Source: Hyphomicrobiales bacterium (GTDB taxonomy: Bacteria > Pseudomonadota > Alphaproteobacteria > Rhizobiales > Phreatobacteraceae). Taken from it: a stretch of DNA of 24,000 bases. The DNA is taken from contig JAFKKV010000015.1 of NCBI GenBank assembly GCA_017304475.1, forward strand, positions 229,428 to 253,427, written 5' to 3'. The notes beneath the pieces are model-generated. The model was not told the DNA's origin. It did not search any database and saw only the letters and a program-made list of their open reading frames with translations. Positions 15,599 through 16,455 of this stretch are shown here, piece after piece. The position numbers and the translations under genes are program-made. Positions within the stretch are counted from its first letter, which is position 1. Each line of letters begins with the position of its first letter.

Positions 15599-15835
15599 GT
15601 GGCCGAGGGATCCGGCATCGCGACCATGACCGGCTCGGTCGCGACGGGCGTGACGCTGAACGTGGCGCTCGCCCCGTCGGCGGCCATGGCGATGACCTAC
15701 CTGGCCGGCGCCGACAGCATCGCGCTCGCCATGGCCAATGCGGTGGCCAATCAGCAGCGCGGCCAGGTCATCGCCAATGCCGCCACGGTTCAGGCTCTGG
15801 CGCTGATCATTTCGAAGGGAGCTACAGGCACATGA
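15599..15835 (+). CDS. divergent RebB-like protein lacking the N-terminal VNSQITD motif (78 aa)
   Basis: GTG start preceded by GGGGGA. The core aligns to RebB: VTLNVALAPSAAMAMTYLAGADSIALAMANAVANQQRGQVIANAATVQALALIIS versus VTQANVKVLGDAPAIAMGNLYQATAQALANAAHNAANAQQQSYVTSQAATTMGVATLYS. Its stop overlaps the next ATG (ATGA at 15832-15835). Confidence 0.6.
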   Translation: MAEGSGIATMTGSVATGVTLNVALAPSAAMAMTYLAGADSIALAMANAVANQQRGQVIANAATVQALALIISKGATGT

Positions 15836-16455
15836 GCGATGAAGGCACAGTCAACAGCCGGGTGGTCGATTCCGTCGCCAGCGTCGTCACGCTGCTGAGC
15901 GGCCAGTCGCCGTCCCAGGCCTTCGGCATGCTGGATGCCGTCATGGTCGAGACCCTCGGCATGGCCATGCACAACGCGGTCGGCCGCCAGCAAGGCGGCG
16001 GCATGGTCAGTGCCGCCGCGGTGACGGCCGCCTGCGCCAAGATGCTGCAGACGCCGTTCCCTATCGTTCCCCCGCCGTCACCGCCGGCGCCGCCCGACCC
16101 GCCAGTGGTCAACCCGCTGCCGGGACCACCGCCCAGCATGCCGCCCAAGGCGATGATCGCGGCAGCCTTCGCCGAAGGCGAGGCCGCCATCGGCATCCTG
16201 CAGGCGGAGGCGAAGGGTGCCGGCGCCAATGCCACCCAGGCCCAGGCGGACCTGGCGCAGCTCGCCAAGGATGCCGCGGCCAGCACGCCGCCGCCCGCGG
16301 CGGTGATCGCCGCCGCCTTCGCCGAAGGTGGTGCCGCCATCGGCGTCCTGCAGGCCGAGGCCAAGGGCACCGGCGCCAATGCCACCCAGGCCCAGGCGGA
16401 CCTGGCCCAGCTCGCCAAGGATGCCGCGCCCCCCACGCCGCCGCCCGGGGGCTGA
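15832..16455 (+). CDS. RebB-like domain fused to a Pro-rich linker and 2 x 50-aa repeat (207 aa)
   Basis: The N-terminal roughly 73 aa are RebB-like (TVNSRVVDSVASVVTLLSGQSPSQAFGMLDAVMVETLGMAMHNAVGRQQGG...). Residues 74-105 are Pro-rich (PFPIVPPPSPPAPPDPPVVNPLPGPPPSMPP). Two near-identical 50-aa units follow (...IAAAFAEG(E/G)AAIG(I/V)LQAEAKG(A/T)GANATQAQADLAQLAKDAA..TPPP). Confidence 0.7.
   Translation: MSDEGTVNSRVVDSVASVVTLLSGQSPSQAFGMLDAVMVETLGMAMHNAVGRQQGGGMVSAAAVTAACAKMLQTPFPIVPPPSPPAPPDPPVVNPLPGPPPSMPPKAMIAAAFAEGEAAIGILQAEAKGAGANATQAQADLAQLAKDAAASTPPPAAVIAAAFAEGGAAIGVLQAEAKGTGANATQAQADLAQLAKDAAPPTPPPGG
16147..16446 (+). repeat. in-frame 150-nt tandem duplication inside the chimeric reb gene
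   Basis: Units 16147-16296 and 16297-16446 encode aa 106-155 and 156-205. There are few amino-acid differences, plus several synonymous differences at the DNA level. Confidence 0.8.

Follow-up and report, generated by a model that had tools for sequence, protein, structure and literature searches.

A complete group-1 reb operon lies in the 24,000-nucleotide (nt) stretch analyzed here, hereafter the window, which comes from a Hyphomicrobiales bacterium of the Phreatobacteraceae (assembly GCA_017304475.1, contig JAFKKV010000015.1, positions 229,428 to 253,427 of the forward strand). One of its genes encodes a protein of 207 amino acids (aa), built of a RebB-like domain, a proline-rich linker, and two tandem copies of a helical module. 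By sequence, this gene is almost certainly the ortholog of HP1.3, described by Raymann et al. in 2013 (PMC3583457), and of Reb group S2, the group of htRebF, in a 2026 survey in BMC Genomics (PMC13430693). The class has thus been known to the literature since 2013, with a second description in 2026, and multi-copy variants are already in public databases; what is peculiar to this copy, judged by comparison with its homologs, is the lineage-specific two-module tail only. New here are three features of S2: its "proline-rich extension" terminates in a separate helical domain, ~43 residues long, that is specific to the family and has a single conserved face; this module has repeatedly changed in copy number, between 0 and 4; and translation of S2 is coupled to that of the preceding gene, S1, in ~70% of operons. 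R-bodies are pH-triggered protein actuators with relevance to symbiosis, virulence, and bioengineering; what their accessory proteins do is the chief question still to be answered about them.

The assignment to S2 relies on similarity, length, and synteny. Raymann et al. report a group 1 synteny with four "hypothetical proteins," HP1.1 to HP1.4, of which HP1.3 (~170 aa, "approximately twice as long as a typical Reb") and HP1.4 (60 to 80 aa) are distant Reb homologs, while HP1.2 has 110 to 120 aa and HP1.1 ~360 aa (PMC3583457). The 2026 survey renamed HP proteins as secondary groups S1 to S3, seeded S2 with the 184-aa htRebF of Hydrogenophaga taeniospiralis (WP_068173300.1), and placed in S2 those proteins that are closest to this seed at 40% identity or more (PMC13430693). 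By BLASTP, the window protein shares 60% identity over 71% of its length with a 184-aa protein of H. taeniospiralis CCUG 15921 (P0047), which agrees with the seed in species and length; the survey's identity measure may differ from that of BLASTP. At 207 aa it is set apart from its four canonical paralogs of 87 to 94 aa, and the order of products in the window, four RebB proteins followed by proteins of 78, 207, 116, and 366 aa, is that of group 1. An earlier sequence-only reading of this DNA had called the protein chimeric, on the premise that proteins of Reb clusters are all small and single-domain. That premise is outdated, as the same architecture was described as HP1.3 in 2013, and the protein is instead a fixed, ancient member of the operon.

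That reading also pointed to long RebB-domain proteins in other genomes as the place to look, and they are indeed there. A homology search with the 207-aa protein gave 167 relatives, the best 120 of which were listed, and the same architecture, usually with at least one module, is constant in the homologs inspected, 22 by reading of the sequence and 36 by alignment. Their sources include Phreatobacter, Bradyrhizobium, Brevundimonas, Nevskia, Solimonas, Xanthomonas, Stenotrophomonas, Burkholderia, Piscinibacter, and Hydrogenophaga. In databases, many S2 homologs carry the label "Translation initiation factor 2 / IF-2 (modular protein)" or "U5 snRNP spliceosome subunit," a misannotation that has been propagated and presumably stems from the Pro/Ala-rich tail.

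The three-part anatomy had been proposed from the sequence, and a Pfam match, the composition of the linker, and a tandem repeat array bear it out. GC content at the third codon position of the plus-strand frame is 88%, against 67% window-wide, which marks this frame as coding; the 363-aa open reading frame (ORF) on the opposite strand (15822 to 16913) is, on this evidence, most likely a high-GC shadow ORF. A GGGAG or AGGAG motif recurs in the other S1/S2 loci displayed at the place equivalent to the Shine-Dalgarno-like sequence of the window (Table 1). The first part of the protein, aa 11 to 74, matches the Pfam family PF11747 (RebB, "Killing trait") at 66.9 bits, well above the curated gathering score of 24 (E value of 1.7e-18; profile positions 1 to 64 of 68), and AlphaFold2 (AF2), run on an alignment of 36 sequences, predicts helices at aa 6 to 24, 27 to 56, and 59 to 73. 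This domain is as constrained as the presumed major ribbon subunits. In comparisons with Phreatobacter stygius, the ratio of nonsynonymous to synonymous substitution rates (dN/dS) is 0.02 for the RebB domain of S2 and 0.00 to 0.07 for the major subunits, and a single residue separates the two S2 domains.

Family signatures of the RebB-like domain in the S2 homologs inspected are VNSxxxDS, NAVxRQQ, and an invariant cysteine, Cys68. This cysteine (window 16033 to 16035, in the motif AACAKML) is present in 36/36 aligned S2 proteins, and the window's other six Reb-like proteins have no cysteine. The 2026 survey dismisses the cysteines of Reb proteins as rare and irrelevant (PMC13430693); despite this, the invariant Cys68 may be worth notice, and we regard it as a useful by-product of the alignment.

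The linker that follows is equally a family trait. In the window it has 18 prolines among 32 residues (56%), and family-wide the segment between the RebB domain and the first module has lengths of 28 to 43 aa, with a median of 34 aa and a 5 to 95% range of 28 to 38 aa, and is 52% proline. Within the 36-sequence alignment L96 and P99 are invariant, and the PLPGPP motif is conserved. AF2 assigns no regular secondary structure to residues 74 to 104, and dN/dS against P. stygius is 0.28. Across the family, then, the length of the linker is constrained.

The third part, the module, was characterized in 45 nonredundant copies from three proteobacterial classes and in a closely overlapping set of 48 copies. 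Its consensus in the homologs inspected is AxIAAAxAEGExAIxxLKxQA......AxxAQADLxxL. The 45 copies are invariant at A13, L17, and L35, with conservation of 90% or more at A6, A28, A31, and L38; I14, D34, and A42 are 85 to 90% conserved in the 48-copy set. Conservation recurs with a period of 3.53 residues, at a power reached by none of 5,000 shuffles, which indicates a helix with one conserved face. AF2 agrees, predicting for the full-length protein one long helix per module (aa 105 to 150 and 160 to 197; mean pLDDT, the predicted local distance difference test, of 72.6, and 83 to 88 for the block of unit 1) and, for the two-module piece alone, helices at residues 5 to 50 and 56 to 97. Together with a module dN/dS of 0.24 to 0.43, the conserved positions and their period support the earlier view that the module is under selection rather than slippage junk.

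By its profile, this module is a discrete, family-specific domain of ~43 aa. A profile search of 1.84 billion representative sequences retrieved 29 proteins with an E value of 1e-3 or less, mostly S2 proteins or fragments of S2. Two other identities were considered and rejected. The module is not a known domain, as Pfam gave no match and a sequence search of the PDB gave only noise, nor is it a degenerate segment or half-domain of RebB, since hhalign against the window's seven Reb paralogs gave a probability of 0.1% and one aligned column. The searched passages of the 2013 and 2026 papers contain no mention of a helical module or of variation in its copy number (PMC3583457, PMC13430693).

In the window the module is part of an in-frame tandem duplication, which Tandem Repeats Finder reports with a period of 150, 2.1 copies, 89% matches, zero indels, and a score of 497. 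Each unit ends in TPPP. Between the two, 17 of 150 nt (88.7% identity) and 7 of 50 residues (86% identity) are different, and the affected codons are divided equally, seven synonymous and seven nonsynonymous, with E12G and A45P/S46P among the replacements. A duplication described from sequence as nearly perfect and mostly synonymous is therefore neither. The differences are unevenly spread, with 13 in nt 1 to 73 of the unit, one in nt 74 to 132, and three in nt 133 to 137, and a run of 37 nt (window 16370 to 16406) is identical in both units. This pattern could reflect stronger constraint on the half that contains AQADLxxL or partial gene conversion between the copies.

The same comparison dates the duplication in relative terms. 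By the Nei-Gojobori method, dS between the units is 0.21 and dN is 0.09, a ratio of 0.43, and ortholog dS between the window and P. stygius ranges from 0.13 to 0.46 across the operon; as the value for the units is comparable, the duplication, though lineage-specific, is not young. The S2 ortholog of P. stygius (P0001), at 158 aa and 85% identity to the window protein, has one module within an identical operon whose genes are 88 to 97% identical to those of the window at the nucleotide level. A second ortholog, of 160 aa and from the metagenome-assembled genome (MAG) Phreatobacter sp. GCA_003427375.1, likewise has one module in the same operon. Five derived substitutions (S16G, Q21E, Q23K, D28N, and one at nt 135) are common to both window units relative to both outgroups. 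Single modules in both relatives and these shared derived sites place the duplication after the split from both. "Recently duplicated," the wording of the sequence-only reading, is apt in relative terms only, as dS between the units (~0.21) is close to that between the orthologs.

Could the second unit have been created by the assembly of what is itself a MAG? The exact 207-aa sequence was not found in a collection of 15 billion proteins, even though the 366-aa protein of the same MAG is there, the neighboring 366-aa protein of the window being identical to MBN8940908.1 of a Rhizobiales MAG, and short-read contigs do break at the repeat. We nevertheless consider an artifact highly improbable. 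Seventeen differences between units and an exact frame are not expected of a collapse or expansion artifact, and multi-copy forms are common in the S2 family. Furthermore, an independent assembly, the Logan short-read contig SRR13325154_3458, matches the window at 100% identity from position 16377 on. Its start lies within the 37-nt run common to both units, where a real repeat breaks short-read assembly, and it carries bases specific to unit 2 followed by identical downstream sequence.

Evidence of repeated change in module number is apparent across the family. When a hidden Markov model (HMM) of the module was scanned over the best 120 of the 167 homologs and the window protein (n = 121), one copy was found in 79 proteins, two in ~15, three in 11, four in 1, and none in 15. 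The module was also scored in 81 genome loci, where multiple modules occur in Bradyrhizobium (2), in Brevundimonas and Caulobacteraceae (2 to 3), and in this window (2). Copies within one protein are 40 to 93% identical, from 40% in Brevundimonas and 50% in Bradyrhizobium to 84 to 93% in the window, in the homolog P0032, and between copies 2 and 3 of 290-aa proteins; such a wide range points to several independent duplications. At the other extreme, no module was scored in the S2 ORF of Azospirillum and relatives (L022-L029, L034, L037, L039) or of Niveispirillum (L054, L056). In P0120 of Azospirillum argentinense, the sole module-less sequence that was read, a Gly/Ser/Thr-rich repeat (for example TVTGGTGNS, three times) stands in place of the module, and the RebB domain and the beginning of the proline stretch are retained. 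To judge from such forms, the S2 tail is replaceable, and the module-less lineages make it less likely that the module has a binding function that is both precise and indispensable. As a separate observation, the S2 gene of Bradyrhizobium oligotrophicum S58 (L036 / P0035) is apparently frameshifted past its first module, so that the annotated 247-aa product reads on into Arg/His-rich nonsense sequence, with the second module in a different frame; this gene is either a pseudogene or the product of a sequencing error.

Such variability raises the question of whether the tail is anything more than a loosely constrained spacer or solubility appendage, with the duplication in the window a neutral product of replication slippage or unequal recombination. 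The range of 0 to 4 copies fits this explanation, as do tails that vary from PA-rich to basic to G/S/T-rich, a unit dN/dS of 0.43 with replacements such as E12G and A45P/S46P, and the sufficiency of one copy in both closest relatives. However, both units have remained in frame and intact through 17 substitutions, at a dN/dS below 1, and the stretch of the unit with its single difference (nt 74 to 132) coincides with the family's most conserved stretch, AQADLxxL. Multi-copy forms also persist clade-wide, with Bradyrhizobium copies ~50% identical and three copies in Caulobacterales. We regard a loosely constrained tail with a functionally neutral duplication as somewhat unlikely, while giving it real weight.

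For S2 as a whole we favor an accessory role, a model to which we would give about an even chance. S2 would be a low-dosage accessory subunit of the group-1 R-body, low in dosage because a single S2 gene accompanies four or five group-1 RebB genes. These numbers come from a synteny set of 80 related loci from species-level genomes of Alpha-, Beta-, and Gammaproteobacteria; the set contains no Phreatobacter, and the loci of P. stygius and Phreatobacter sp. GCA_003427375.1 were fetched separately. Most of the 80 loci have four group-1 RebB genes and some have five, S2 being single. The order of four to five group-1 RebB genes, S1, S2, S3, and the gene for the 366-aa protein is found in every sufficiently flanked locus, plus P. 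stygius, and S2 was found in all group-1 reb operons fetched. Where the S1/S2 junction was compared, in 78 loci, the S1 stop overlaps the S2 start by 4 nt (ATGA, window 15832 to 15835) in 54, spanning three proteobacterial classes, and in most of the others the two genes are no more than 5 nt apart. Such conserved coupling suggests a 1:1 complex of S1 and S2.

We envisage that S2 is made in step with S1 through this overlap, probably as a pair of divergent RebB domains, and that the strongly constrained RebB-like domain of S2 would dock into or onto the polymer of the four major RebB paralogs. The spacer, ~34 residues long, ~50% proline, and constrained in length, would keep the 43-residue helices away from the RebB domain or the lattice. 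The conserved Ala/Leu/Ile face of each helix would probably pair with a helix of the same protein, of a second copy, or of a partner. With copy number having changed repeatedly between 0 and 4, the two copies of the window protein may form an antiparallel hairpin or double the valency; an intramolecular hairpin of the two modules is suggested, at low confidence, by structure prediction.

Several observations weigh against this model. The literature searched yielded no experiment, proteomics, or electron microscopy on any S2/HP1.3 protein, so that S2 is a putative component of the R-body. A search for a terminator or attenuator separating the major reb genes from S1/S2 found none, so that the description of S2 as a minor component derives from gene dosage alone. 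The module is much less constrained than the RebB domain (dN/dS of 0.24 to 0.43 versus 0.02), it is missing from 15 of the 120 listed homologs and from ~25 of the 81 genome loci, and its hydrophobic periodicity at the heptad angle is borderline (p of ~0.05). Structure prediction, which the sequence-only reading had proposed for the repeat module, returned one long helix per module but no confident packing, with a predicted template modeling score (pTM) of 0.30 for the full-length protein and 0.38 for the two-module piece, and five models at a pLDDT of 45 to 69. The best two-module model resembles antiparallel hairpins such as EsxA/WXG100, the MacA hairpin, and ESCRT-III, in matches that are generic and nonsignificant (E value of at least 0.8), and the PDB holds no Reb structure by which the C terminus of the RebB domain could be oriented. 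Loss of the module, relaxed dN/dS, and the lack of confidently predicted packing together counsel caution about any precise, indispensable role of the tail.

A second way of reading the same gene is that S2 is an assembly factor, a nucleator, chaperone, or chain-end cap that is absent from the finished R-body or present in traces. Its RebB-like domain would bind the major subunits, and its Pro/helix tail would block subunit addition or bundle RebB domains into a seed. A precedent exists in the type 51 R-bodies of Caedibacter taeniospiralis, where RebC is required for correct assembly without being detectably incorporated, and where off-pathway aggregation results if RebC or RebD is lost; the 2026 survey suggests that the secondary groups may have regulatory roles like that of ctRebC (PMC13430693). 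The single S2 gene beside four or five major genes would suit such a factor, and a self-pairing helix face could bundle subunits. On the other hand, a RebB domain as constrained as the structural subunits fits either role, and a module lost in many lineages is hard to square with essential helix-driven nucleation. We consider an assembly factor somewhat unlikely, and less probable than an accessory subunit.

Decoration of the ribbon, a cargo adaptor, and nucleation or capping, the functions offered by the sequence-only reading, are guesses between which neither these data nor the literature searched discriminate. Two more elaborate roles for the tail can be proposed. In one, the displayed helices would act as an adaptor through which a cargo or toxin, such as the 366-aa protein or a 1,221-aa protein encoded downstream, is tethered to the R-body. 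The 366-aa protein always co-occurs with S2, the 1,221-aa protein occurs in ~25 of the 80 loci, and Raymann et al. proposed that these Reb-specific proteins may act as regulators or as the toxin (PMC3583457). Yet the 366-aa protein is kept where S2 has no module, as in the Azospirillum loci, and the module search gives no signature of a partner domain, leaving tethering an improbable function. In the other, spacer and helix array would form a tunable ruler or latch: helices of neighboring S2 proteins would pair between one turn of the roll and the next, inter-layer spacing, coil stability, or the unrolling threshold would be set by how many helix-PPP units there are, and the two-copy allele would be an adaptive retuning. 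This idea is speculative and we hold it to be improbable.

The remainder of the operon and its surroundings are summarized in Table 1. S3, the 366-aa protein, and the 1,221-aa protein match no Pfam or NCBIfam family. Homologs of the 1,221-aa protein occupy the same position in the group-1 loci that have one, and this protein is a candidate partner or toxin. Within the 132-aa ORF, HAEAIAERAVH occurs twice as an internal repeat; gene calls of 131 to 132 aa exist for this ORF in the Logan and Phreatobacter sp. contigs, and in the P. stygius interval only a 74-aa gene is called. Fragments of 73 to 77 aa of a Phreatobacter-type 366-aa protein have been deposited under Proteus vulgaris, Klebsiella pneumoniae, and Enterobacter hormaechei, on contigs of 220 to 236 bp, and look like contamination in those assemblies.

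A homolog of the AAA+/AraC regulator is found near most group-1 reb loci, and the window regulator has no GAFTGA motif. A sigma-54 promoter of the -24/-12 type upstream of the first reb gene, to which the AAA+ domain of the regulator pointed, was considered and rejected: the window has one weak match (13993 to 14007), and such a match was found in 1 of 78 loci, against 5 in a control region. As no conserved -24/-12 promoter lies upstream of the reb genes, the regulator probably acts independently of sigma-54.

Table 1. Features of the S2 gene and of the surrounding reb operon (window coordinates)
Feature	Position	Strand	Evidence or remark
S2 / HP1.3 / RebF-type gene, 207 aa	15832..16455	+	ORF with ATG start, 27 Pro in total; Pfam RebB match, homologs, third-position GC
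RebB-like domain, aa 11-74	15862..16053	+	PF11747 match, dN/dS, AF2 helices
Pro-rich linker, 32 aa (aa 74-105), PLPGPP motif	16051..16146	+	Composition, alignment
Repeat unit 1: helical module (~43-aa core) and ASTPPP joint	16147..16296	+	Tandem Repeats Finder; module HMM, 63.8 bits; AF2
Repeat unit 2: helical module and PPTPPP joint	16297..16446	+	Tandem Repeats Finder; module HMM, 63.5 bits; AF2
Shine-Dalgarno-like AAGGGAG	15815..15821	+	Inside S1 3' end; ends 10 nt upstream of S2 ATG; read from sequence
Four tandem canonical group-1 RebB genes, 94/89/88/87 aa	14190..15504	+	Pfam RebB, E 1e-30 to 3e-29; presumed major ribbon subunits
S1 / HP1.4 / RebE-type small divergent RebB protein, 78 aa	15599..15835	+	Pfam RebB, E 2.1e-13
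S3 / HP1.2 / RebG-type protein, 116 aa	16500..16850	+	Conserved directly after S2; aligns weakly with Reb paralogs
HP1.1-type protein, 366 aa	16891..17991	+	Always downstream of S3; compare HP1.1 of Raymann et al., ~360 aa
Ala/Glu/Arg-rich ORF, 132 aa	17991..18389	+	Starts on last base of the stop of the 366-aa gene (TAATG)
Protein of 1,221 aa	18498..22163	+	Downstream of reb genes
AAA+/AraC regulator, divergently oriented	22248..23918	-	Sigma-54-interaction-type AAA+ domain and AraC-type helix-turn-helix

The variation described here offers a natural allelic series for the function of the tail, with a single copy in both P. stygius and the Phreatobacter sp. MAG and two copies in the window. 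These two Phreatobacter orthologs share the operon, and the window protein alone has the 150-nt in-frame tandem duplication. The more distant S2/HP1.3 protein of H. taeniospiralis is likewise encoded between S1/HP1.4 and S3/HP1.2, with HP1.1 following. It differs in having one module where the window protein has two, and in a long Pro/Ala-rich tail that is missing from the window protein, which stops after the second TPPP joint.

Among other systems, experimental data on an extended Reb-associated protein exist in one case only, that of RapA (PA14_27680, Reb group S4) from Pseudomonas aeruginosa PA14. Like S2, it is longer than the structural subunits (~210 aa) and has a Pro-rich extension, and it was present in purified R-bodies at levels similar to those of RebP1 and RebP2 and associated with RebP1 in cells. 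RapA and S2 are set apart, by their descriptions, in that RapA has group 2 synteny, an N-terminal charge-rich extension, and weak Reb similarity. A second comparison is provided by RebC and RebD of C. taeniospiralis type 51. Both are encoded in a reb operon as accessory proteins, as S2 would be, and they control assembly without making up most of the ribbon. RebD is incorporated in minor amounts, and RebC, according to Raymann et al., has no homologs outside Caedibacter (PMC3583457). By analogy with RapA in the R-bodies of P. aeruginosa and with RebD and RebC in Caedibacter, an accessory role for S2 is plausible. Unlike S2, RebC and RebD are small and have neither a Pro-rich spacer nor a helical module.

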